Positions 6,100-64,000 of a stretch of 64,000 nucleotides of DNA are shown in pieces. The DNA is from Narcine bancroftii (taxonomy: Eukaryota): the NCBI RefSeq assembly GCF_036971445.1, contig NC_091472.1, forward strand, positions 90,520,001-90,584,000, read 5' to 3'. Position 1 is the first letter of the stretch. Each line of letters starts with the position of its first letter. Below the pieces are notes generated by a model, which searched no databases, had not been told where the DNA came from, and worked only from the letters and a program-made list of their open reading frames with translations. The position numbers were made by a program, and so were the translations under genes.

Positions 6100-7180
<1,081 letters not shown>

Positions 7181-24789: not shown

Positions 24790-27700
24790 GAGGATATAAA
24801 AAAGGGCAATATCTTCCCTTCATTCAGGTAAGTCACTAGGACCGGATGGGTATACAGTGGAGTTTTTTAAAGCCTTCAATTATACTCTAGACTTTCATTT
24901 ATGTAAAGTCTTCACTGACTCTATATCCTCTGGGATTTTGCCTAAAACATTTTATGAGGTATTTATTTTATTAATTCCTAAAAAAGATAAAGACCTGACT
25001 GATTGTGCCTCCTACAGGCTGATATTTTTATTAAATGTAAACTCTAAAATCCTTTCTAAAATTTTAGCCAACAGACTAGAGAATATTCTATCTAAAGTTA
25101 TATCTAAAGATAAAACTGAGTTCATTAAGAATAGGTATTCTCATTTTAATATTTGAAGATTATTTAATATTATTTATTCTTCTCTATCGGAAAAACCTGA
25201 ATGTGTTGTATCTCTTGATGCTGAAATAGCATTCAATAGAGTGGAATGGCCCTACTTATTTGAGATTAAAGTGATTTAATTTTTGTCTGGGATTTATTTC
25301 TTGAATTAAAATGACTTATCAAGCTCAAATGGCTGTGTTTATTACTAATAATCAATAGTAGCGGCTGCTACACACAGAAAACACTACTGGACTCGGTGGG
25401 GTTTCCAGTAGAACTGTTTATTTGAATTTTGCGCATGCCACTTTAAGGTCAACGGGAGATCTGCCCTGTGCAGCAGTGACATCATCATGTGGCCCGGAAC
25501 ACGAGCAGTGGCCTTAGCCACGAGGCAGTGAGTAAGCCCTGACGGCGCCATCTTCTGCAGCTGCCCCGCCAGCACGGCGGTACAAATGGGGCCAGTTCGC
25601 TTACAGAAATATGCACCACCACTCAAACCCCCCAGAACTGGCTTGCACATCCCGCTACTTGGGCGGTCAGCCTCTCCATTTGGGCTGTGCTGTTTGCACG
25701 GGCTGGCTCAAGTCCACATATGCTAGCTTCATCTGGTCGACAGTGTAAAGTTCCTCCCTGCCCCCAATTTCCAGAGTAAATGCTTTGCCTGATCACTGGA
25801 GCACCTTGTATGGGCCCTCATAGGTGTGGGCCTCGCCAGACTAAAACGGACTCCGCTGAGTCCAGCTCTTTGTGGATGTTCGCCGGGTGCTTGCTGTGGT
25901 GGGTTGGCAGTGGGGGTGTTAGCGGGGCAAGCTTGTTGCAGAGGTCTGAGAGAAGCGTCAGGGTCTCACCTTCCGGCCTGGCGTCTGCTCCAAGAAACTC
26001 CCCTGTCAGCGACAGCGGTGTACCGTAGACAAGCTCTGCAGACGAGACTTCGGAGCTGTTTGTATGCCAAACAGGACCCATGGCAGCTATGAGTCCATTT
26101 GCTTGGGAATGATAGGCTGTTGTGTGGGGGAGTTGAATCCCCAAGCACCTTGCCAGCTGCGCCCAAAGGGCAGAGGTGAACTGGGTGCCCCTGTCGCTAG
26201 TAATGTGGGCTGGGATGCTGAAATGTGCGATCCAGTTCATGAACAGGGCTCTGGCGCAGGACTCGGTGGAAATGTCCCTGAGGGGGATGGCTTCCGGCCA
26301 CCTCGTCATCCGGTTGACCACGATCAGGAGGTAGCGGGTGTCCCTGGACAATGGTAGGGGGCCCACTATGTCGACGTTGATATAGTCGAACCTCCTAGCC
26401 AGCGGGTTGAAGTGCTGTATCAGGGCTCTGATGTGACGCTGAACTTTGGGTGTTTGGCAATGTGTGCAGTTCCACACCATCTGGGCCACTTGTTTCCTCA
26501 ATCCGTGCCAGATGAAGCGTTCTGCCACCTTGTGGACCTTTGTCTTGACTGGGGGTGAGCCAGGTCGTGGATCGCCCGGAATGCCTCCTGCTTCCACTGT
26601 GGGGGGACTAACGGTTGCAGCGAGCCTGTGGAGACGTCGCACAGGACCATGTTGTGGCTGCCTAGCAGCTTCAGGTCCTCTAGGCACAGGCCTGTGATGG
26701 CGGTTCAGAAGGCCTGTGTCTTCTCGTCGTCCCTCTGGGCCTGGTTGTTTCCCTGGTATGAGCAGGGTTGGCGGCATTTGTGAGCTTGTGCTCCCCAGCG
26801 CTGGTGATAGAAACACCAGGTCACCTGGTGCTCCTCGATCTTCTGTCTAGGGGAAGGTTGCAGTCGGCTGGGTGCAGGGTGGGAAACCTGGTTCATAGTG
26901 GTCTCGTTCTCCTTCTTCATTCAACAGAGCACGTCGGCATGGGCTGCGACCTTCCTGGGGTCTGAGAAGTCCTTGTCCACTATCAGGAGATGGATGTCCT
27001 CCAGCATTTGTTCGAGGAAGGCTTGGTCAAACATCAGGCAGGGCTTGTAACCCTCTGCCAGTGCAAGCATCTCATCCATCAACGCGGACTGGACTCTGTC
27101 CCCCAGGCCATCGAGGTCCATCAGCCTGGCCATGTGCTGCTGACAGGAGAGCCCAAAGGTGCTGAGGAGAAAGGATTTGAGGGTGATGTACTTGCCCTCC
27201 TCGGGAGGATCGTGGATCAGGTCATCCACTCTGGCCACTGTTTCCTCATCAAGGACACTCACCATGTGGTAGAACATGGTGGAATCCGAGGTGATCTGCC
27301 GGAGTCGAAACTGTGCCTTCGCCTTCCCGAACCATTTGCAGGGCTGGTGGGTCCAGAAGGGAGGGAGCTTCACAGAGATGGAGCTGATTGCCGAAGAGTC
27401 CCTGTTTGGAGACCAGATATCATCTGGGCTCGTTGGGATCACCAATGTAGTAGCTGCTACACACAGAAAACACCACTAGACGTGGTGGAGTTTCCAGTAG
27501 AACTGTTTATTTGAATTTTGCGCGCGCCCCTTTAAAGCCAACAGGAGTTCCGCCCCGTACAATGGTGACGTCATCATGTGGGCCGGAGTGCGAGCAGAGG
27601 CGTAAGCCCTGACAGCACCATCTTCTGCAGCTGCCCCGCTAGCGCGGCAGTACAAACAGGGCTGGTTCGCTCACAGAGATGTGCGCCACCACAGTCTCTT

Positions 27701-30997: not shown

Positions 30998-31673
30998 AGA
31001 AATATGTACGCATTGCTCATGCAGATCAAGAGGCTGACCGGTGTCCGGCAGCTCCCACCTTTGCTGGCAAAATGCCGGCCGGTCGTTCTGGCTGGTGACT
31101 TCAACTGCATTATTGATGCGGTTGATGACTTGGTGGTGGTGACAGCAGACTGGATGATGTGGCAGTGCCAACGCCAGACTAGTTGGTCCAGCGGTGCTGA
31201 TAGATGACTGGACTGTTGCTCCATACTCCTGATGGAGATAATTAAGGGAATGCACAGCTGTAAAACACCTTCATCAACCTTCCACCTAGTCAAGATCGGA
31301 CGGCCCAACCCAATCTCGATAGACTTCTTCTTTGTGTTGAAGCCTGTCATGGTCATAACCACCAACATCACGCTGATGATCTTCTCTGACCATTGCCTCT
31401 TATGCACCTTCTTTCACCTACAGGAGAACCAAAAGGCAGACAGGGAAATGTGGAGGATGATCGTGAAGCTGCTGACCACAGAGAACATAGAAGAACTAAA
31501 GGAGGAGTTCGATGGTTGGAGAGATGTGGAACCCTTATTTAATTCCCCATTGAACTGGTAGGAAGTGACCAAAAAGAACATCAAGAGGTTCTTTATCATC
31601 AAAGGTACTCGGAGAGCAAAACAGAGGATGAGGGAACTGAATCAATTCCAGACTGACTTGCAGCAGTCCAGAG

Positions 31674-34600
31674 CAGTGGTTTTCAACCTTTTCCTTTCCA
31701 CTCACATACCACTTTAAGTATTCCCTAGGCCATCAGTGCTCTGTGATTAGTAAGGGATTGCTTAAGGTAGTATGTGGGTGTGGTGAATGTCTGCCAAGCT
31801 GCCTGTCTCCCCCCTCTGGCAAGCCTTGCTGTACTAACATTGGGTGTGCATTATTCTCTACTGTTAAGGACACTCCCTTTGGATATAACTGTATATGCAT
31901 CTATTGTCTTTCATTATTGTACCATGAGTTTCTGCTAATAAAAGCCATGATTATTGTTTGACCACATCATCTTTGTCTACTTCATCAACTAGCACTTCAA
32001 TTTTATTAGCAGAAATGGATGCAGCCCTCAGGCCAGAGCGGCTGATAATCGACCCAGTCTACCCAGAGGGCCAGAGAAATTTTCAGCCACTGGATTGCTT
32101 GTTTTGATTACTACATGACTCGAAACAACGTGGTCGATGAGGCGATACAATGGGGCCACCTGAACTCTCTGCTGGGTGAGATCCCTTTCGCAGTAACGCA
32201 AGGAGCTACCACTCTGGCTCTAACCCGGGAATGTCTGTCTGCTTACTATGCAGTGCCATGGAATGTGGTGCTTGCTCAACACCAGTTGCTGACTAGACGC
32301 CAGAAACCCGGGGAAAGTGATGCTGCCTATGCACTGGCTCTCGACTCACTGGCAAATGAATGTGATGTCAGGGCAGTCAATGTGCAACAACACCACAATG
32401 CCTTGAAGCTGGATGCTTTAGTCAATGGGATTGACTCCAGTTATATCCGACAGAGGCTGCTGAAGACGGAGCCCTTAACCTACGACCGGGCAGTCACTCT
32501 AGCCAAAACACTGAGAAGTGCCACGCGGTCCAGTAAAATGCTAGAAACCGAAAAGGAAACATCCAGGAGTCCTGGAACCCCGAAGGAAAGAAAAAGGCAA
32601 ACTCCTGAAAAATGCTACTTCTGTGAGCTGGCACCCCAGACAGAAGTGTCTGGCTCGATTTGCTATCTGCAGCTATTGTGGGAAACTCAGCCACTTTGCT
32701 AAAGCGTGTAAGGCGAAAAGTACTTCCACTGATAAGAAGAAGAAGAGAAGCACCAAGAAAATGCATCCTGGAGCAGCAGGAATGGAAGACACTGTGAAAA
32801 GGGGGAATCTTCAGACGAGCAGGCTGAATCGAATTCAAGTGACGGTGAGGTGAGATCCCCTGTGATAGCTCAATTGACTCCAAAACTTGGGGGATGTTAC
32901 GGACTGGAACGGTCGACTATGAAGGGGGAGGTAATTGGTGAGACTCTTGATTGTCTAATAGACTCAGGGAGTGCTGACAGCTACATCCACGAGAGAGTTG
33001 CCAGAGCCTTAAATTTGAGGAGATATCCAGCGAATCGAAAGATATCGATGGCTTGTAGTGAACTTACAAAAACTGTACGGGACAAGTGTAAAGTTACTTT
33101 AAATTTGCAGGGAGATTGCCTGGCTGATGTGTGGCTCTTTATTATGCCGGAGCTCTGCACCCTTGTGGTACTGGGGTTAGATATTCAATCTCAGATGAAC
33201 AGTGTAGTGTTAAATTTTGGTGGGCCACTACCTAACACTTAAAGATCAAAGCTCCCTCCCTTTTCAGTGATTTATCCCCTGAGTGTCGGCCGATTGCCAC
33301 TAAGAGCCGTTCTTACAGCAAAGAGGATCATGAGTTTATCAAAGCTGAGACCCAGAGATTGCTTAAAGAGGGAGTAATTGAACCCAGTAAGAATCCGTGG
33401 CGAGCCCAGGTGGTAGTTGTGAAAAATCACACTAAGAAATGACTGGCTATTGACTACAGCCAGACAATCAAATGTTACACTAACCTTGATGCCTACCCCC
33501 TGCCACCCATCAATGAAATGGTTAATCAGATAGCGCAATACAAAGTGTACTCCACTATCGACTTCAAAGCAGCTGACCACCAAATCCCCATTGAAAAAAA
33601 AGGAACGACCCTATACAGCCTTTGAGGCTGATGGGGGGTTATACCAGTTTAAAAGGGTACCTTTTGGAGTCACTAATGATGTGTCAGGGTTTCAGAGGGA
33701 AATGGATAAGATTGTTTGGACGTATTAATTACAGGATACGTTTCCCTATCTGGATAATGTCACTCTCTGTGGGAAAACACAGGCTGAGCACGACAACAAC
33801 TTAAAAGAAATTTTTAGCAACAGCTAAAGAACTCAACCTTACATTTAACGAGGGCAAATGTGTGTTCAACGCAGCAGAGCTACCCATTCTGGGCTACATT
33901 GTCTGCAAGGGCGAAATCCGCCCCAACCCAAAAAGAATGGCCCCCCCTTAAGAAGTTACCACCCCCAAACTCAGCAAAAGCTCTTAAAAGGTGTATGGGA
34001 TTCTTTTCCTACTACTGCAAATGGGTTCGGGACTACGCCACGAAGGCACGCCTTCTGTTTGACACTAAATCTTTTCCTCTCTCTCCAATGGCCTTGAAGG
34101 CTTTCGAGAGAATTAAAGCTGATATTGCCAAAGCTGCACTCTCGTCCATTGATGAGGATGTCCTATTTCAAGTGGATACTGATGCCTCAGATTGTGCCTT
34201 GGCAGGAACACTTAATCAAAAGGGCAGATCTGTGGCATTCTTCTCCCGCACGTTATGTGGACCTGAACTTAAACATCTTGCCATTGACAAAGAAGCCAAG
34301 GTTATTATTGAAGTTGTTCGCTACTTTCTAGCTGGCAGAAAATTTACTCTTGTCACTGATCAGAAATCTGTAGCCTACATGTTCAGTACTAAACACAAAA
34401 GTAAAATCAAGAACGATAAGATGGCACATTGGCGAATGGAACTCTCAACTTATAATTATGAAATCCAGTACAGACCGGGCAGGTTAAATGATCCCTCTGA
34501 CGCATTGTCACGATCTGCTGCCAATGCTCAACTGGAGGGGCTAAAAAAGATCCATAGCAAACTGTGCCACCCAGGAGTCACGAGATTCTTCCATTACATA

Positions 34601-36287
34601 AGGGCTAACAACCTTCCTTACTCTCTGAAAGAAGTCAGGAAACTGACTAAAAGCTGCAGAATGCAAACCACAATACTTCAAAGCTCCAGAGGCCACTCTC
34701 ATCAAGGCAACCTGACCTTTTGAGAGGATTAGCTTAGATTTTAAAGGGTCGTTACCTTCCAACAACAAAAATGTATATTTCCTTACTGTAATTGACGAAT
34801 ATTCCAGGTTTCCCTTTGCGATACCCTGACCTGACATCTCGTCAGCATCTGTCATTAAACCACTTGACAGAATTTTCAGCATTTTTGGTTTTCCCAATTA
34901 AATTCATACCGATAGAGGCTCAGCATTCATGAGTGCTGAACTGCAGCGAGCCCTGCTACAAAAAGGGATTGTCACCAACCATACCACGAGCTACAACCCG
35001 CAGGGCAATGGGCAGGTTGAAAGGGCTAATGCTACAGTCTGGAAGACTGTTAATCTTGCTTTAAAAACACATGGTTACCCTGTAACCCGGTGGCAGGAGG
35101 TACTGCCTGAGGCACTACATTCTATTCGGACTTTATTGTGTACTGCAACAAATCAAACACATTATGAACGTATGTTTGCCTTCCCTAGGAAATCAGGAAC
35201 TGTGATGGACTGTCCAGCCTGTTTATCTGAGCCTGGAACCGTGCTGCTGAAGAGCCACTTGGGCGTGTAAAACAGACACCCTAGTCCAATCAGTTCAGGT
35301 ACTGCATATTAACTCCAACTACGCTCATGTTAGATTCCCAGACGGGAGTACGGACACTGTACCCCTAAGAGATCTGGCCTTGCCTGGTTCGTCCCTTCCC
35401 CACACCCCTACTCAGAGTGAGCCTGAGAGGTTGGACTCACCCCACCAGCCTGTGACCCCTAGTCAGCTTTCAGATAGCCATGCTGAGGCTCCACTGCCTC
35501 ACGCTGGCGATTCTGGAGCAGGTCCAGAAGTCATTCCTTCCCACACTACTGACCCAGGACCTGTACCAGTTCCCAAGGTTTCGAAGGAGCCACCTGTTTT
35601 GAGACAAAGCACCAGAATTCATAAACAACCTGATGGGCTGACATATTCATAAAACATCTCATTATATTTCGATTGCTTGCTAGATACTGGCGTATTTTGG
35701 CTGTTAGAGTTTCTCAAGGCCAAACATGGTATCCATGTATCGCTTGCTTCAGTCGTTCCTAGCAGCTGTCCTTTTGATTTTAACCCTTCTTCTGCTGGGG
35801 GGAGCCTGTGGTGAATGTCTGCCAAGCTGCCTGTCTCCCCCACTCTGGCGAGCCTTGCTGTACTAACATTGGCTATGCATTATCTCTACTGTTAAGGACA
35901 CTCCCCTTGGATATAACTGTATATGCATCTATTGTCTTTCATTATTGTACCATGAGTTTCTGCTAATAAAGGCCATGATTATTGTTTGACCACATTCTCT
36001 TTGTCTACTTCATCAACTGGCACTTCAGTGGGTGGAAACAAAAAGTTTGAAAATCAGTTTTAATTGTTCTTAATTGACTCTTTATGTGCACGATTTCATA
36101 ACTCCAAAAGAAATGGGCCAAAGACAATTTTTCTTAAGCAAAATATTTCAGTAACAATTGGGTCTAGAGCAGTGGTTCTCAACCTTCCCACGCACACACT
36201 AAAGTAATCAGTTACTAATCACAGAGCACCGATGGCAGAGGGATTAAAGTGGTACGTGAGTGGAAAGAAAAAGGTTGAGAACCAGTG
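31674..36287. mobile_element. Non-autonomous hAT (Charlie-like) MITE, composite, interrupted by the Gypsy element at 31779-36027
   Basis: Terminal inverted repeats CAGTGGTTTTCAACCTTTTCCTTTCCACTCACATACCACTTTAA and TTAAAGTGGTACGTGAGTGGAAAGAAAAAGGTTGAGAACCAGTG; 8-bp TSD GTCCAGAG (31666-31673) / GTCTAGAG (36288-36295), one mismatch. Confidence 0.85.
31779..36027 (+). mobile_element. Structurally complete Gypsy LTR retrotransposon (4.25 kb), ORFs disrupted
   Basis: 221-bp LTRs at 31779-31999 and 35807-36027 (TGTGG...CTTCA, about ten differences by eye); 5-bp TSD GTGGG (31774-31778, 36028-36032); PPT before the 3' LTR. Gag from ATG 32015 with two Zn knuckles, protease CLIDSGS, RT YLDNV, RNase H TDASD/VTDQ, integrase DFKG/HTDRGS/NGQVERAN, in Gypsy order. 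Confidence 0.95.
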
Positions 36288-39179
36288 GTCTAGAGGGTGG
36301 ATGTGAAGGATGTGAGGGAGGAACTCCAAGAGCTGGAAAACCACATTATTCACTTCAGAGTCCTCCAAGACCATCTTCCGATCTAGAGTCCGTACAGTGG
36401 ATCAGGATGAGACAAGCTTATGCTTCTTATAAAAGGTTCACAGAGGGATCTCTGTATTCCGCAGCCTTAATGAAGAGGTTGGCTTAGTCACATCCTTACA
36501 GATGCCCATACAGAGGATCAGCAGATTCTATTATGCCAGTATGTAACACGAAGGGCACAAACAGCATGGCCTCCCAGAACCTCTCGTCCTCTATCACAGA
36601 GGTCTTAGATGACAGCAAATAGGAAAGCCTTGATCAGCCAATAACCCTGGGGAGATGATAATCTCCATCCATTCCTTTGGATTGAATAAAACACCTGGAA
36701 ATTACAGCTTACTGGGTGAGTTGTACATGACTCTGTGGGACTGACGGGTTTGACCTGCTGTAAGTGTACAGCACTATGCTCCTGGTCGGCAGTATGCCAG
36801 ACTCCATGAGGAAGGGTATCATCACTCTCATCTTAAAATATAAGGGGGAGAAGGAGGATATCAAGAATTAGGAGCCATAACCTTGCTTAATTTGATGACA
36901 AAATTCTGTCCAAAACTATAGCCAATCGAGTTAAGTCTGGCTTGGGAGGTGATTTACCCGGTTCAGGTCAGGAAAATCATCTGATGCCCTTGTGTGCTCA
37001 GGTAGACCATATACCATTGCCTATGTGCAGGACAGGAGGGTAGCCATCTGTGTGGTCACTTTGGACCAGGAGAAGGCTTTAGACTGGATATTGCACCCAT
37101 GATGGAGAAGCTATATGTTTTCCACCCATTGATTTGAACTGCACTATGGATATCTGTACAGAGCAGTTTAATTCAATTTCTGATTTCCTCCCAAAGCCCA
37201 TCTTGGAGAAGACATCTATGATCTTGTTGAATAGTGGAACAGAGTGGTCTACTCCTGCTCCAGTTTGCATATGTCCTTGTGTTAACAGGGTAAGGGTAAA
37301 TTAAATAAAAAATGTGATTTCCTTTTCCTGTATCATGCTGAAACTTTATCTGGCACTTGATACAGCAGTCATTTTGGGAATGTCAAACCAATTAAGTGCA
37401 ATGGCATCAATGCAGTGCAGGGTTGGAGTGTAAGATGAGCATTGTCTCCTGTGAATGAGGAAGCAGGGGAGAGGTATGGAGAACATCAAGGCTAGTGCTG
37501 GCTAAAGGTGAAGTGCCATCGATGTAGGAAGGTGGGACATGGATTGGAATGGAGCCTCCAGGACTGGAGAAACAAGGAAGCTGAGAACATTCAGCAGCAG
37601 GAGAGAGTTGTAGCCACTGCATTTGACAAGGACCTCGTCAGGTTCCAACTGAACTATTCTGAAGGGTGTGATTGGCTGACACATGCTATCAGATAGCAAT
37701 AATAGTTATTTTTCTACTTTTTTTCATGGTTTCGAGCTTTGAGTATGAAAGTTTATTGTCATATGTACAATATCCAGATGCATTGAAATTCTTACTTTTT
37801 GCAGCCACATAAAATATACCAACTATAATAATATAAATTAAAATTGCCACAATATGTCATGAGACAGAAATATGGATGGTAAATACATGGTGCAAAAATG
37901 CAATGCTTTATATGTTTTGTGCAGAAAATATTTGGAATTTCAAGGTGTGGGTTTGGCAGGTGAGGGTTGAGTAGTGTTTGTGATTTTCTATATGTTGCTA
38001 CTTCATTAGCAAATATACAGAGGTAGATCTTTAATTGAATATCCTTTGCAGAACGGAGTCACTCAACTAAACAGCAGTAACTGTTCATGATGCTGAATGA
38101 AGAATCAAACCCTTCTTAGAGGTGCCATTCATGTACACACCCCAGGTTCTATTTTGAAAAGGAAATAGCAATGGAATTAATTAAAATATGCATGAAATTA
38201 TAGAAGTTCAAACCATTTTGAACACAATCAGTTATTTGGACTCTTCATTCACTGAGCTTTCACTGCAAGCACATGGGATGTTTCTGAAGTAACCACCCAG
38301 TAATATCTCAGTGAATCATTTGCACAGTTAGCCTCAGACACATCTACACATACCGTCCTTTCCATTCTGTAACTGTTTTCTTTAAATACATTGCATTTTT
38401 TGAATGCATTGTATTGGGTGTTTAATGAGACCATATTCTTTATTCACTGTTCACATAAAACTTAACAGAGTCCAGTAACCTTTAGGAGGAAAAATGGTTA
38501 TAAACTCACTTTGCATATGTTACATTTGATGCATACCATGAACTTATTTGGAACAGTGTTTCCTTGGGTCTACTTTGGTTGCCCATGGAAGCAGTAGAGG
38601 CGACCTGATTAAATATATTTAAGACACAAATAGATAGATTTCTGTATCATAAAGAGAAATGAGTAAAAGGCAAGTACGTTGCTCTGAGTCCATGGCCTGA
38701 TCGACCATGATCTTATTGAATAGTGGATGTGCTTAATGGGCCAGATGGCTGACTCCTGGTCCTATTTCTTATGTTCTTCACCATCCCCTATTTTAGTACC
38801 TTTGTCCAACTGCCTCTCTGTAGCACCAGGCCTTCTTTTCTGCTTCATCTTTGAAGTCCTTAGGATCTGTTTCTGAGCTATAATTCTACAGTGCTTTTGA
38901 TACAGAACAGCCTCTCTGATACACTGACTCATGCTGGTGCCACACTCTGGCCCATTGGTTTCTCGGATCCCCCTGCTGTTTATTGCAAATATCCTTTCAA
39001 TAACACAGTGCTCCCAATTCAGGTGACTTGATCCAGCTTACTCGCACGATCACTAGCGCATGCTCACAACCTGTCACTATGAAAGGCAGCCGGACCCATC
39101 CCTCCCTCCCAGCCACACAACAGTTTATCTATCCCATACACGGAGGGTCCATTCTTCTTAGGCGCTCAGTGGGACAAAC

Positions 39180-47729: not shown

Positions 47730-50700
47730 TGTGGTGATACAAGCACCACACTGGCTGCACTCCCACCAGCCAACTGCAGGGAGAAACCATTGTACCTGCA
47801 GGTAGGCAACCTGGGAGGCTGGCCCCACATGGCCGGCTGTCAATCACTGACCTGTATAAAGACTCGAGACAGCCCCTCCCAGGTCAATCAGACACATGGA
47901 GCCAGCAGAGGACAGCAGGGCACATGTGGGCCATCAAGATATGACAAATGGTGTGTACAGAGTTTAAGTCGATTAAAACCTGTAGTACAGTCTTTTCTCA
48001 TGTTTTGTGTTTGCTTGTGTTGGCCTGTGTATGACTGAGACAGGGATGACCGAAGAGGAGGTGGAGCAACTTGTCCAAGATGCCTGCGTGTGACGGTTGC
48101 GGTCGAGGGCCACCCAGCAGAGACTGCTGGAAGAAAATACTGGAGGTAGTTCACTCTCTGGAAGCTGCACCACGTAGAAACCTTCAATGCTCAACTCCCC
48201 CAACCTCTGGCCTGGCTGACACCAATGGCTGTAATTGCTGAGGGGCCCCATGTGGAAGAGACTATCACTGCCACTGACGCAGTCTGCCACTGCAAGTACT
48301 GCGGGTCCTGGTGTGGGTCGGACAGGCGCTCCTGAAAGAGCTGACCGGCGAGGAACTTGCATTGCTCTCAATGTGGTAAGAAAGGCCACTTCGCTAAGGT
48401 GTACCTCTCTAGACCCACCGGAAGCATTGTGGCCCTCTATGATCAACCAGGAGCCCCCCCCCCCACCCCCTGGACATCGCCATATGTGAATACCGGGAGG
48501 CACCATTACTCGGCCTGTCACTTCTGCCCGCACCACTGACGTCACTTCCGGCGCAGCCACTCACCCTCACCGCTGCTGTGTACTCACCACAGGGGCCGCC
48601 ATCTTCCATTACCCGACTTCCGCCCGCACCGAAGACGTCACGTCTGCCCACACCAATGATGCCACCTCCAGCCTCACTTCCGGTTGGGTCACCCGACTGC
48701 ACCAAAGCCACATGTATCCAGTAGGTGCCGCCATCATGAGCCAACTGGCCCTAACTGCCTCAACTTGCTCAACTCACTGATGGGACGATGTGGTCAACAT
48801 GTGTGCATACACAACCTCGCACCCACCCACCCCATGTTCCAAAGGTAAACCGGTTGCCTGTAGCATGGAGAGGCCGCAGGTGGATTGGGGGCAGTCGCTG
48901 GGTTTTGTGCTGTGGATGGTAAATGGGTGGAGTGGGCCACTAAAGGCAAGGGTGAGGCTTTGGAGGTGGCACTGGAAGTCCATCCCCAGGATGACAAGGG
49001 CACAGAGCTTGGGCATGACCAGGAGCCTGAACCCTTGACATCACAACCATTAGAGAGCAGCGACTCAGATCCTGAGGACTTGAGGTGGTTCTAGTGTCCA
49101 CCACGCTAACAGAGGACATTCCACATGGACTTGGGCACTTGATGATGGACATCACTGCCAATGGGAAGGTAACAAAGCACCTGTTTAATAGGGTAGTACT
49201 GAGAGCTTTGTGCACCTGAATGTGGCCCATATGCTGAATTAAAGGTATGCCCCATGAACTTCTCTATCGCCTTCACTGTCCAGGACCACTCTATAACAGC
49301 ACTCGGGCTCTGCTCAGCAGACTTGACAGTGGGAGGGGAACATATCAAGGGTTCAGGTTCTTGGTCATGCCCAAGCTCTGTGCCCCTGTCATCCTGGGGC
49401 TGGACTTCCAGTGCCACCTCCAAAGCCTCACCCTTGCCTTCAGTGGCCCACTACACCCATTCACCATCCACAGCACAAAACCCAGCGACTGCCCCCAATC
49501 CACCTGCGGCCTCTCCACACTACAGGCAACCCTTCCTGCCCTCTTCAACTACCTTATGTCAGACTGCAAGCCCATAGCTGCCAAGAGCAGGTGCTATTGT
49601 GCGGCCGACAGGACCTTTATCAAGGAAGACATGAGACGGCTTCTGATGGAGGGAAACATAGAGCCCAGCACCAGCCCCTGGAGAGCCCAGGTCCTGATCT
49701 TAAAAGGGGGCAGGAAACAGAGGATGTTCATTAACTATAGGCAGACCATCAACCGATACACCCAGCTGGATGCCTACCCTCTGCGCTAATCGCTTACATA
49801 GTCAATGAGATAGCCCAGTATAGGGTCTTCTTCACGATTGACCTGAAGTTGGTCTACCACCAGCTCCCCATCCACACCCTGGATAAACCTTAAACCATCT
49901 TTGAGGCAGATGGTCACCCCTACCAGTTCTGCTGAGTTCCCTTTGTGGTCACAAATGGGGTCTCTGTTCCAGCAGGAGATGGGCTGCATGGAAGACCAGC
50001 GCAATCTAAGAGCAACCTTCCCATACCTGGATAATGTCACCATCTGCGGCCATGACCAGCAGGACCACAATGCCAACCTGTAGAGATTTCTCTGGATGGC
50101 TGAGGAGCTGAACCTCACTTACAACAGAGTGTTCAGCACCACCCACTTCGCCACCCTGTGGTACATCATGGAACATGGTGTCATTGGTCCTGACCCTGAA
50201 CGCATGCACCCCTTAATGGAACTACCCCTTCCTCACATGCTCAAGACCCTCCTTAAGTGCCATGGGCTTTTCTCTTACTACTCCCAGTGGGTCCCCCGCT
50301 TCTCGGAAAAGGTCTACCCACTGGGCCGCCACCACTTTTCCCCTCCACCCCCAAGGCGCAAGCGGCCTTTGCGCACATCAGACAGTACATCGCCATTCCA
50401 GGTGGAGGGCAATGCCTCTGATGTTGCCCTTGCTGGCATTCTTGACCAAGGGGGCAGACCCGTGGCCTTTTTCTTCAGGACCTTCCACGGTTCTGAGCTC
50501 AGGCACTCCGCCATTGTAAAGAAGGCCCAGGCGATTGTGGAAGCAGTCTGCCATTACTGCCACTACCTGGCAGGCAGGAGGTTTATCCTCCTCACTGACC
50601 AGCGCGCAGTGGCATTCACGTTCAGCATCACCCACAGAGGCAAGATCAAGAACTTCAAGATCTTGCACTGGAGAGTCAAGCTGGCCACGTTCAGCTACAA

Positions 50701-53405
50701 CATCCAGTACAGACCAGGGAAGTTCAACAACTCCCCTGACGCCCTGTCCCAGACCTATTCCAGTGCACAGTCCAACCAACTGCAGGCACTGCTTGACACC
50801 TTTTGCCACCCGGGCATCACGCGCCTGTATCACTTTATTAAGTCCTGGAACTTTTCTTTCACTGTCCAGGAGGTCCAGACTGTGACTGAGTCCTGCAGGG
50901 TCTGTGGGGAGTGTAAACTGCGCTTCTTCCACCCGCCACAAGTCCATATCATCAACACCACTTGGTCCTTCGAGCAACTCAACATCGACTTCAAGGGACC
51001 ACTGCCTTCCACAAACAAGAATGTCTATTTCCTCTCAGTCATAGACGAATACTCCCGTTTTCCCTTCACCATCCCTTGACCTGCTACCTCCACCGCCTCC
51101 GTTATCAGGGCACTGGCGCAGATCTTCATGTTCAGATACCCAGCATTCATCCACAGTGACCGGGCGTCCGGCTTCAGAAGTGAGGAGCTGCACCAGTACC
51201 TGACAAAACAAGGCATTGTGGCTAGACGCATGACTAGCTACAACCCCGGGACAACAGGTAGGTGAAGTGTGAAAATGGGGTGATCTGGAAGGCAGTCCTC
51301 CTGGCCCTGAGGTTGAAAGGCTGTTCGTCTCCTTCCCAACGTGGCTAACGTCTCCAGGACTAGTACTCCTCCACAAGCACGTGCAGACTTACAAGTCTGA
51401 TCCTCTGGTTGAGCAGGTGCTCCTTCTCCATTCAAATTCAAACTACGCCTATGTCAGATAGCCCAATGGACGTGAGGTCACTGTCTCAACCAGCAGGGGC
51501 CCAACCTCTCCACCATGGGTACCCTGCCCAACCTTCCCACTAAGGGCACCCTTTGCCCACCCAGGATTCCCTGGGAGCCGACTCCCACCCTCCGTCTCTC
51601 CAGAGGGCCCCACCCCTCACGGACCTGCCACACACATACATCTCCTCACTGCCAGACACCACCTTGCCCACACCACTGGCTGCCCTGGCCATCCCAGCCC
51701 CAGCTGACCCTTCAGTTCGTTTGTTTTTATGGAAAAGTAAATTATCTAGAATCACTTTGCAAAAACTGACTTAGAAATATGCTTTAGAAGGTTTGCAATT
51801 ACCAAATTTTCAGAATTATTATGAAGTAGCACAATTGAAATTTATTAACCGAATGTCAGACACTGAACAAATTCCAGTATAGGCAAAAGTTGAATTGTCA
51901 CAAATATCAGAGTAATGCTAATTATTTTATATATATATGGAGACCGAATTTTTTAAAGACTTATAACGTATCTGTACTTATACATTTATTGGAAATTTTG
52001 TATAAAAGAGATTAAATGATTGGAACTAAGGGTAAAATCACTGCTCAGACCCCTATTTATCGGAATAAGATTATTCCATTTTCTATGGTTCGTCACTATT
52101 TGAAGGATTGGGAATTGAAGGGTATCAGAATGATGGGAGATTGTTTTGAGAAGGGCGTTTTTCTTTCTTTTGCTCAACTGCAAGATAAATTTGGGATATC
52201 AGTGAATTCAATATTTGCTTTTAATCAAGTGTGAGCTTTCTTAAAAGAAAATTTTGGACAGGAATTTAAATTTCCCAATTTGACTAGGTTTGAAAAGTTG
52301 ATTATAGAAACCTTGAAAAAAGGTTTTATATCAGGAACATATGCATTATTGCAAGAAAAGATGAATAAACCTGGTGTTTTTAAAATAAACGATAAATGGG
52401 AGAAGGAATTACTACTTTTTATATCAGAGGAAGATTGGGTAAAGATATGTGAAGATGCTGTAACGAGGTTGATTAACATGAGGTATAGTTTAATTAATTA
52501 TAATTTTTTACATCAGTTATATCTGACTCAGGAAAAGTTAAAACAATATGGTTTTAGGGATTCAGATTTATGTTTTCTACATTCGGTTTGGTCTTGTGAA
52601 AAGGTGCAAAGCTTTTGGGTGAAGATGAGAGAATTTTTGGAATGTTTGTACAATATTCAGTTATTAGTTGATCCATTATTCTTTTTATTGGGAATTATGC
52701 AAATATAAAAGTGGGTTTAAAGTTGGATAAATTTCAAATTGCATTAATTCGCTTGGTTCTAGCTGTGGCTAGAAAATATATTGCGGTAACATAGAAGGAT
52801 GATGTAGAGATAAATATTCAAAGATGGCACAATGAGTTGAAATCATGCATTTATTTAGAAAAAATAACATTTAATTTACACTAAAATGTGGGAACCATAC
52901 TTAAAATATATGGGTTTGAATATATTTTAATCTTTCTTTTTATAACAAAAAGGCACTCACTTCTGTATGTTAACATATTTGTAAAAGGCTCCGTTATTAT
53001 GAAGGAGTAGGGGTAGTTTGGGTTTTTTTTTGTAGTGGGGTAGTTGGATGGGGGGAGGGGTATTTATAAATAATGAATTGTAATATGGGGTTTTTATATA
53101 TATATTTCTGTACTTTATGGAACCCACATCATTGGCCGCGCTCCCATCAGCCTACTGAAGGGGGCAACCTCTGTATGTGCAGGTAGTCAACCTGGGAGGC
53201 TGGCCCCACCTGGCCGGCTGTCAATCACCGAACTGTATATAGACTCGAGCCGGCTCCTCCCGGAGCCAGCAGAGGACAGTCGGGCACAGTGGAGCGAGTC
53301 ATTAAGATATGACAACTGGTGTGTACAGAGTTTAAGTCAATTAAAATCTGTAGTACAATCTTTTCTCGTGTTTTGTGTTTGCTTGCTGCACCACAGCGCA
53401 TCACA
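47730..53405 (+). mobile_element. Gypsy LTR retrotransposon, rearranged and decayed
   Basis: Related LTRs at 47730-~48020 and ~53115-53405; 5-bp TSD AACTG (47725-47729, 53406-53410); CSQCGKKGHFAKV knuckle, PSTSPWRAQV, YLDNVTICG, LLTDQ and IDFKGPLP. The 5' LTR end, PBS and gag start are deleted. Confidence 0.9.
51716..53112 (+). mobile_element. 5'-truncated L1 fragment inserted near the 3' end of the Gypsy element
   Basis: GLQLPNFQNYY, WEKEL, NYNFLHQLYLT, LHSVWSCEKV, LAVARK and LEKITF; G-rich 3' UTR. Confidence 0.85.
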
Positions 53406-61177: not shown

Positions 61178-64000
61178 TGCAGTGAACTGAGATTCACTGG
61201 GAGAGTGCTGTTTCGATGACTGGCCCTGCCTCCCGGCTCCACCCCCATTTACTCACATATAACCCTGGTTTCCCGCCTAAAGCCAGAACCCCTCTGAAGC
61301 CAACAGTGAGCCCTACCTGTTGCTGAAAGCTAATAAAAGTGTTTGTTCTCCCTCCAGTCGTGTGAGAGCTTTTATCTACGCTACAATTTTATTACCCAAG
61401 CCCAGTATGCTGTTATAGGCCCCCAGTATCCTGTCACGGCTTAGGAGCTTGCATATTGGCTAGACTGCTTCCAGGCCTACCTGAACACAACCAGGAATGT
61501 CTTCCACACAGACGAACTCCAGAAGTCAGCGCTCATCTCCAGTGTAGGAACGAAGGGATATGCTGCTGTCAGAGACTGCCAGATGTATGAAGCCGCCATC
61601 AAGGCACTGAAAACTTGCTACATGAAGGCCCTGAATGAGGTCCTAGCGAGGGACTGGCTCATTCTACATTGCCAATAGTCTAGAGAGTTGATTGACAACT
61701 ACCTGCTGGATCTGCGGATGCTTCCGAAGAAGTGCAGGTATGAAGTGGCTTTAGGCCGCGTTCGAGAAGATTAACAGATCCAGGACACTCTGGTCACAGG
61801 GGTCCGCTCGAGGTACGTGAGGCAGCAACTACTTGAGTTGGAAAAGAAGGACCTCGCTAGTCACGTCCAGCTGACTAAATCACTGGAACAGGCCAGGCTC
61901 GAAAATGATGATCTCGAAGCCAGCAAATTCATGCTCTCAGGTGAGCACCTCCAAGGACCTGCAGCTCCCACTACGGCTGCCCCTGCTCTAATGGCTGCCA
62001 CTTCCCGTGCCAGGGAGTGCTTTGTCTGCAGAAAAGGTCAGCACCTCCAAGACCATTGCCCTGCTAAAGACTTGGTGTGCTCCACCTGTGGAAAGAAGGG
62101 ACATTGGGCAAGGATCTGCTGCGCAAAGGGAGGTCCGGTTAAGTTCACAGCCTGCACTGCTTCTGGATCCAAGTCCAGCCCCAAGCTGTCTGCCCTGTAC
62201 TTATGTGAGATTGCCTACTGCGCAATCCGGCACCTTTGGAAATGATGCGAAAGGCTCGGTGGCCATCTTGTTGTGGCCCAAATTCAAATTTGGTGCCATC
62301 ATTGTCAGAGGAGGAAGGAAGGCAGCCACCTTGCCATGCCACGAGGTCGGTGCCATCTTACCTGCACAGTTCAACTCAGGGTGGAGGGGGCCACTCGAAC
62401 GAGGAACAAGGCATCTCCGGCAAACTGGCATCACTGGTCTTTGACCAGAACAGATCTCACCAGCTCAGTAGCTCTATGGTAATGGTGAAGGTAAATGGAT
62501 ATTCTACCAAGTGCCTAATTGACACGGGCTCCACAGAAAGTTTTATAGACTCACGTACTGTACAAAAGTATAACTTAAAAATGTATCTTTCTAATTATTG
62601 AATCTTCCACATGTCTCAATCCCATTCGGTGCATGTAGAAAAACATTGTATAGTTTATCGTTCGAAGTTTGTAAATTTTGTAAATTTCGATTGTATATTT
62701 TGGATGAATTGTGTGCTCTGGTACTGTTGGGTCTGGACTTCCTGTATCACCTTAAAATGTGACCTGGGAGTTTTCTGGTCCCCTCCCCCCTGAAGTGCTT
62801 TGGAATGGAGAGCCCTCAAAATCAGGATCCACTTGCAGCCTCTCCACGCTGAACATCGACCCTCCCCCTCTATTCCCAAACCTGTCTGTCAACTATAAGC
62901 CCATCGCCACCAAGAGCAGGAGGTACAGTGTGGCAGTCAGAGAGTTTATAAGGATGAGACCCAACACCTGCTGGAGGAGGGGATCATCGAGCCCAGCACC
63001 AGCTGTGGAGAGCGCAAGTGGTGGTTGTAAAGGGGGAAAACAAGTCCAGGCTAGTAATTGACTATAGCCAAACTATCGGTACACACTCCTGGATGCATAC
63101 CCCCTCCCTTGCATTTTGGATATGGTGAATGATATCGCGCAGTTTCGGGTTTATTTGACCATTCACCTGAAAGCTGCCTATCACCAGCTGCCAATCCATT
63201 CGAGGACTGCCTGAACACAGCATTTGTGAATAACAGTCGACTCTATCAGTTCTGGAAGGTCCCTTTCAGCATTACCAACGAGGTTCCTATCTTCCAGCGG
63301 CAGATGGACAGAATGGTGGACGAGTACAGGTTGAAGGCTACCTTCCCTTACCTCAACAATGCCATAATCTGTGGCCACACCATGGAAGACCATGATGCCA
63401 ATCTCCAGAGCTTTCTCCATGCGACGAGAGCCCTGAATCTCACTTATAATTCCAACAAGTGTGTATTTAGGACTATACGACTCACTATCCTTGGCTATGT
63501 GGTGGATAAAGGTGTCATTGGCCGCGATCCAGATAGGATGCACCCCCTCTTAGAGCTCCCTGTTCCTAGGACCACAAAGGCTTTGAGGAGATGTCTGGGG
63601 CTTTTCTCATATTATGCCCAATGGGTCCCTCAATATGCTGACAAGATTTGTCCCCTCTTAAAGGCCACCACTTTCCCCCTTTCAGCCAAAGCCCAGCCGG
63701 CTTTCAATTACCTCCAAAACCATATTGTGAAATTCCAAGTGGAGAGTAATGCTTCGGACATAGCCCTGGCTGCCACCCTCAATCAGGCGGGCAGGCCTAT
63801 TGCATTTTTCTCACAGATTTTACAAGGCCACAAGCTTTAGAACCCGTCAATGGAAACGGAGGCTCAGACCATTGGAGAAGCCAAAAGGCACTGGAGGAAC
63901 TACCTGGCTGGTAGAAGATTTACACTCCTTACGGACCAGTGCTCTGCCACATTCATGTTCAGCAACGCCAAGAGAGGCAAAATCAAGAATGACAAAATTG
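61178..64000 (+). mobile_element. Gypsy LTR retrotransposon, decayed, running off the right edge of the window
   Basis: LTR ~61178-61385 (TGCAGTG...CGCTACA, TATAA, AATAAA); two knuckles CFVCRKGQH...C and CSTCGKKGHWARIC; protease CLIDTGS; RT ATFPYLNN; RNase H SNASD and LLTDQ. Confidence 0.9.

Follow-up and report, generated by a model that had tools for sequence, protein, structure and literature searches.

The element described here is a decayed copy from a compact, chromodomain-free animal lineage of Ty3/Gypsy retrotransposons, in which the site downstream of the 5' LTR pairs with a segment of the element's own LTR (the arm), and this segment is likely to act as the primer instead of a tRNA. 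The pairing is real and lineage-wide, its register is constant, and arm and site covary both across and within families; we conclude that the lineage probably primes in the manner of Tf1 without belonging to the Tf1/sushi group. An earlier note on this DNA had proposed tRNA-independent self-priming outside the chromoviruses, and the covariation at both levels supports that proposal strongly, while none of the three observations that it had named as counter-evidence appeared: an equally good match among the host tRNAs sampled, loss of complementarity in the family or lack of covariation across families, or a one-off local inverted duplication.

The window analysed is a stretch of 64,000 nucleotides from Narcine bancroftii, in which the copy occupies 31779-36027 on the plus strand with a decayed gag-pol (Table 1). 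Its TG...CA LTRs, target-site duplication, polypurine tract and domain order PR-RT-RH-IN identify it as Ty3/Gypsy, and the substitution in the arm copy of the 3' LTR is a change of the last A to G. A short high-copy repeat adjoins the element (31667-31780), with an inverted and possibly MITE-like relative just downstream (36189-36294). Further decayed members of the lineage lie elsewhere in the window on the plus strand, one at 61200-64000 with an LTR end near 61386, followed by TTTTATTA, which pairs over 8 nt with TAATAAAA in the LTR, and another at 47750-51700, in which the stretch from the LTR end into gag has apparently been deleted and which contains a short inverted copy of pol (48852-49041). 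The minus strand at 6389-6946 is probably a host exon, presumably of a TMEM178-type membrane protein.

Table 1. Coordinates of the Ty3/Gypsy copy and its putative priming signals in the window
Feature	Position	Strand	Basis or remark
5' target-site duplication GTGGG	31774..31778	+	repeated at 36028-36032
5' LTR, 221 bp, TG...CA	31779..31999	+	95.5% identity to 3' LTR
TATA-like TATAA, 29 nt ahead of Inr-like TCATT	31884..31888	+	putative promoter, from sequence
Inr-like TCATT, possible transcript start at 31913	31911..31915	+	putative; read by eye, failed pattern scan
LTR arm, predicted self-primer, AATAAA inside at 31937-31942	31929..31943	+	pairing and covariation
Post-arm junction, GCCA here (G/A-C-C-T in most families), predicted cut just ahead	31944..31947	+	family comparison
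57-nt loop: rest of R, U5, spacer A at 32000; predicted minus-strand strong-stop template	31944..32000	+	sequence
Primer-binding site, exact arm complement, no TGG	32001..32015	+	sequence and tRNA comparison
gag-pol remnant (gag, PR, RT, RH, IN) with stops and frameshifts	32015..35652	+	translation and domain matches; end approximate
Polypurine tract, two bases ahead of 3' LTR	35797..35804	+	sequence
3' LTR; arm copy at 35957-35971, last base substituted	35807..36027	+	sequence
3' target-site duplication GTGGG	36028..36032	+	sequence

Recomputation confirmed that 32001-32015, TTTTATTAGCAGAAA, is the exact reverse complement of 31929-31943, TTTCTGCTAATAAAA, that a single A separates this site from the LTR end, and that, as the earlier note had it, the AATAAA lies within the arm and an ATG occupies 32015-32017. 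The longest match obtained in 2000 shuffles of the LTR was 11 nt, compared with 15 nt in the real sequence, and among 1590 other positions of the window a match of 15 was never attained, the highest values being one 13 and one 14. The hairpin formed by arm and site was the predicted fold of the region in all nine segments folded. From 2829 candidates in the same genome 40 were scored, yielding a family set of 30 loci that includes the copy in the window; all 15 pairs were intact in 24 of the 30, and each of the other six differed by one base without compensation. As these copies were picked by their likeness to the query, they are evidence for conservation rather than for covariation. The AT-rich arm and the one window position that attained 14 nt could be taken to favour a chance match or a one-off local inverted duplication confined to this copy, but with 24 of 30 copies perfect and the same geometry recurring with other letters throughout the lineage, this explanation is refuted and retains a negligible probability.

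A metagenome scan at 40-55% protein identity gave 80 loci, in 25 of which the gag start could be located. An exact stem of 11-17 bp was present in 23 of these 25; L088 had nine exact pairs, and L064, which lacks a recognisable LTR, had no stem. L043 and L071, located via LTR pairs, showed 13 and 17 pairs, respectively, and the other loci were unusable because they were too short, had no LTR pair or had a pair lacking a usable 5' end. Thirty-five elements were grouped into 22 families and aligned by a single automatic register rule, which scored G-U as Watson-Crick. In this register 12 of 12 Watson-Crick pairs with the family's own LTR were found in 15 of the 22 families, whereas 3 of 462 pairings between families reached this value; owing to the relatedness of the families, these counts are not independent events. 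When L064 was dropped and L033, L090 and L093 were re-registered by hand from LTR ends or sister copies, 15 of the resulting 21 families were perfect over the 12 bases starting one base past the LTR end, and the 252 positions comprised 244 Watson-Crick pairs, 2 G-U pairs and 6 mismatches. The order of LTR end, one spacer base and paired stretch was constant in all 21 families, the spacer being A in 20 of them as well as in all 30 copies of the window element's family, and across the lineage the duplex measured 12-19 bp and the loop 24-68 nt. Arm sequences mostly differ among families, except that three families of the N. bancroftii genome share a near-identical arm. The arm of L106 ends in GAAGA and that of L089 in ACAAAT, each with a matching site, and L035 differs from L037/L048 by a single matched change in arm and site. 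At one locus, L198, the segment that separates arm and primer site has been inverted, and the breakpoints fall at the two arms.

Pairing also tracked sequence change within sister families. Searches of the N. bancroftii genome with gag gave 120 loci, of which eight had no match; the 105 distinct copies consisted of 76 from family A, 11 from family B and 18 others. In family A, the partners of the polymorphic arm columns ranked 1, 1, 4 and 6 of 193 by mutual information. At its most variable column, scored in 75 copies, T-A occurred in 40, C-G in 14 and G-C in 8, so that 62 were paired and 13 discordant, and a one-base insertion shared by arm and primer site was paired in 19 of 21 copies. These changes fall mostly at the level of subfamilies and thus represent a handful of events rather than dozens; family B showed a like trend in its few copies. 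The covariation test put forward in the earlier note therefore came out positive both between families and within family A. A very young sister family (L179-L197) has LTRs that are 99-100% identical in most copies and long single ORFs of varying length; in one of its members, L181, gag and protease are separated by an Ala/Thr-rich repeat. In the youngest copies perfect pairing ends sharply after 14-16 nt.

No TGG-starting site for a tRNA 3' end is present at the primer position of the window element. In a sample of 32 tRNA genes of 15 types, the longest match to the site of the window element's family fell in the anticodon loop of tRNA-Ile(AAT) and covered 9 nt, as against 15 nt for the LTR; the sample is incomplete, as the partner of a CsRn1-like control site was also missing from it (7 nt at best). 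A TGG at 32016-32018 was discounted as primer site because of its distance from the LTR end (16 nt) and a position that varies between families. In many copies of the family, the stretch corresponding to 31933-31961 resembles the part of tRNA-Ile(AAT) between anticodon loop and T-loop, the 29-nt spacing included; this is probably a coincidence, since by eye the flanking stems are missing and the search pattern had been selected for resemblance. CsRn1-like and Gmr1-like elements of the same genome showed self-complementarity of at most 9 nt, with LTR ends that are often poorly defined, and the CsRn1-like controls carry TGG sites. The earlier note had counted two TGG-primed CsRn1-like elements in the window; one was found, on the minus strand near 27.7 kb, but a motif scan gave no second. 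This element, at 25350-27700, we take to be CsRn1-like, and its TGG primer site is an ordinary one.

The suggestion that pairing masks the AATAAA and is coupled to gag initiation held in part. Twelve of the 21 families have a canonical hexamer, AATAAA or ATTAAA, that overlaps the arm, but L106 and L089 are paired in the absence of a hexamer, and in L034 and L036 the hexamer sits in the loop rather than the arm; masking of the poly(A) signal is thus common and not obligatory. Likewise, the ATG overlaps the end of the site in the window element, whereas in correctly registered families the distance from the start of the site to the ATG is 12-44 nt, which makes the overlap family-specific. In HIV-1 a poly(A) hairpin hides the AAUAAA in the 5' leader and tRNA-Lys3 acts as primer, the hairpin being local and present at both ends. 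Base pairing would hide the hexamer in both systems, but in the lineage the partner is the primer site, at the 5' end only.

These observations bear on a reading in which the stem is regulatory RNA, hiding the 5' poly(A) signal or tuning gag translation, and priming is left to a tRNA fragment or other host RNA, for example a half tRNA-Ile as has been suggested for Bianca copia elements. The overlap of hexamer and arm in those 12 families agrees with it, as do the 9 nt that host tRNA-Ile(AAT) shares with the arm at its anticodon loop and the restriction of the tRNA sample to 15 types and 32 genes; half-tRNA priming, moreover, exists in copia lineages, according to the available portion of PMC6317226. 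We nevertheless regard it as improbable. The site varies by family and subfamily and always follows its own LTR, so that a host primer would need matching changes; the tRNA match is shorter than that to the LTR (9 nt vs 15 nt); the stem is retained in L106 and L089 without a hexamer; and G-U pairs, which a purely structural stem tolerates, are nearly absent from the duplex. Half-tRNA priming of the Bianca or Osser type would call for a site that matches a tRNA up to its anticodon loop throughout the lineage; here, among the 15 tRNA types sampled, the window family matches tRNA-Ile(AAT) over 9 nt, and the sites of other families differ.

Sequence conservation extends past the paired segment. 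In the 21 families the first base after the arm is G in 16 or A in 4, followed by C in 19, C in 18 and T in 17. In 11 families this first base opens a hairpin of 4 bp or more, compared with 6 at an offset of +1 (the same stems) and 0-3 elsewhere; this strict measure was adopted after a looser one, which exceeded shuffles (12 vs 3.8), had shown no excess over other offsets. The first pair of the hairpin is G-C in 4 families, A-U in 4 and G-U in 3. The hairpin is absent from the window element's family and from three of the four other N. bancroftii families. G-U pairs are rarer in the duplex (2 of 246 pairs) than in the neighbouring hairpin (4 of 50; Fisher p = 0.008), a contrast that hangs on four pairs, all at helix ends. 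Small as these numbers are, the difference would fit a hairpin selected as RNA structure and a duplex that is additionally copied by template. Just 5' of the arm, a further hairpin occurs in the window family and in family A but is not lineage-wide; in family A (e.g. L130, L132), 46 of 76 copies have a 6-bp stem, GACTGG/CCAGTC, that directly abuts the arm on its 5' side.

As is known from retroviral biology, the position of the primer's 3' end fixes the right end of an LTR, and the primer must therefore pair at a site of the 32001-32015 type. RNA of the arm sequence is, on these comparisons, the only candidate that tracks the primer site. By analogy with Tf1, folding of the element's RNA would bring the 5' arm copy into a duplex with the primer site. 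RNase H encoded by the element would then cut just 3' of the arm, between the A and the (G/A)CC of the conserved junction, which in 11 of 21 families may be marked by the small hairpin. After the cut, the reverse transcriptase would copy the loop of 25-70 nt, and the short DNA would jump to the 3' end via the stretch of R, some 20 nt long, from the cut to the poly(A) site. We infer that during plus-strand synthesis the primer site would be rewritten from the arm, which would account for the near-exclusive Watson-Crick pairing of the duplex. Where arms bear a hexamer, the duplex would hide the poly(A) signal in the 5' LTR only, likely as a side benefit and not as the core of the mechanism.

In a variant of self-priming, the arm that primes would be the 3' copy or one on the second packaged RNA, with the RNA circularised via the 3' R and the post-arm cut shedding the poly(A) end. 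As both LTRs carry the arm, covariation fits this variant equally well. Its other footing is in the predicted transcript starts, which lie upstream of the arm and would leave a 5' overhang in the cis model: TATA-like and Inr-like pairs place the start 28-52 nt ahead of the arm's 3' end in L169, L173 and L181, and reading by eye places it 30 nt ahead in the window element. Promoter-like motifs are thus found roughly 15-40 nt upstream of the position equivalent to 31929 in three sister families and, by eye, in the window element; they lie near the arm in a few families, and an AT-rich or TATA box about 30 nt ahead of the arm gave a weak signal, with 4 of 16 metagenome families at this offset and 0-2 at others. 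A step in depth near 31958 in read contigs was discounted, as it coincides with a polymorphic site. The sharp end of perfect pairing at 14-16 nt in the youngest copies also speaks for the 3' copy. Copies inspected for mosaics that would separate 5' from 3' primer use proved too few and too old to do so. Against it stand the short loop of the cis hairpin (24-68 nt), its prediction in every segment folded, and the Tf1 precedent, which is cis and 5'; we know of no precedent for priming by a 3' copy. On balance we consider this variant unlikely, though less so than a regulatory stem with a host primer, and retain priming by the 5' arm copy in cis as the preferred model.

An unbroken relative from a sister family encodes a single gag-pol of 1447 aa with the order PR-RT-RH-IN, and another relative has two zinc knuckles. 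The absence of a visible chromodomain reported in the earlier note holds for the 1447-aa relative, in which none was detected at E values up to 0.1, and the PF00385 chromodomain was found in 0 of 120 homologues among the matches listed (1171 in total). Named relatives among the homologues listed came from rays, catsharks, a sea anemone, a nematode, gastropods and a spider; no relative of the lineage was found among viral contigs. An RT tree of 53 rows placed 37 RTs of the lineage on one side of a 100/99 branch and 2 degraded sushi-like, 8 CsRn1-like and 6 Gmr1-like RTs on the other, these three labels being our own motif-based assignments. The tree is unrooted, omits L084 and L097, gathers the lineage rows by similarity and has no named references. 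The lineage thus stands apart from the sushi-like RTs of the same genome in this tree; given the missing root, the motif-based labels and the similarity-gathered rows, an origin independent of chromoviruses is not demonstrated by it. Integrase upstream of RT, the Gmr1-like trait, is absent from the 1447-aa relative. The N. bancroftii genome yielded only 16 chromodomain matches and no sushi-type element with usable LTRs; L203 and L263 are rare degraded fragments that we take to be sushi-like. As for a clade name, our guess is Cigr-1, whose size (about 4.2 kb, one ORF) agrees with the lineage. Cigr-1, MolGy and LGF2/LGF4 are non-chromovirus invertebrate Gypsy clades according to the available portions of PMC6238403, PMC8556966 and PMC8220671. 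They and our lineage are alike as non-chromovirus animal Gypsy elements, a likeness drawn from description rather than sequence. The available portions of PMC6238403 and PMC8556966 do not mention a primer-binding site or primer, those of PMC8220671 do so only generically, and the RT motif of the lineage is absent from the supplements of PMC6238403.

Tf1 is known to self-prime, and the same has been proposed for the Tf1 group (available portions of PMC10085805, PMC4600332 and PMC5341516). As these sources describe them, Tf1/Tf2 of Schizosaccharomyces pombe, Tj1 and the Tf1/sushi chromoviruses resemble our lineage in having no tRNA site and a post-LTR site complementary to their own LTR; extra helices adjoin their central duplex, as a hairpin does in 11 of our 21 families. 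Our lineage differs in lacking a chromodomain, in an RT branch separate from the sushi-like fragments of the same genome, in its 12-19 bp duplex and 24-68 nt loop, and in an arm that often bears a poly(A) hexamer. Its neighbouring helix, in the families that have one, is a local post-arm hairpin, as opposed to the three-duplex pretzel described for the Tf1 group, and its arm, unlike that of Tf1, may not be the 5' end of the RNA. For the TAR (Houba/Osr-1) Ty1/copia elements and Tcn1 chromoviruses of plants, the available portion of PMC6317226 predicts self-priming from complementarity of at least 10 bp starting 0-5 bp past the LTR. The window element shows the same pattern, but as an animal non-chromovirus Gypsy rather than a member of these plant copia and chromovirus lineages. 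No description of self-priming in this clade was found in the available portions of a literature that included PMC6934838, PMC13524379, PMC2774666, PMC12440569 and PMC2836005; we think it possible, if somewhat unlikely, that Repbase, GyDB or Additional file 1 of PMC6317226 contains an earlier note.

A broader reading, which we offer tentatively as less probable than not, is that self-priming evolved separately from chromoviruses in an animal Gypsy clade of wide distribution (rays, sharks, sea anemones, molluscs, nematodes and spiders), and in a different form. The primer would be an internal piece of R, possibly its 3' copy, that also serves as poly(A) signal; a stacked hairpin would mark the junction of its release, and each cycle would copy it back into the primer site, so that signal and site would evolve as a unit.

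Annotation software whose search is confined to tRNA sites will report these abundant elements as lacking a primer site. The lineage also makes the mechanism testable, as it offers about twenty natural variants of arm and site, its R is very short, and the candidate cut junction is conserved. In the available portions of the literature, tRNA-free priming in Gypsy elements has so far been tied mainly to the Tf1/sushi chromoviruses. A second large self-priming Gypsy lineage would mean that self-priming either arose repeatedly or is old, and the latter option bears on the proposal, made in the available portion of PMC3601003, that hairpin priming preceded tRNA priming.
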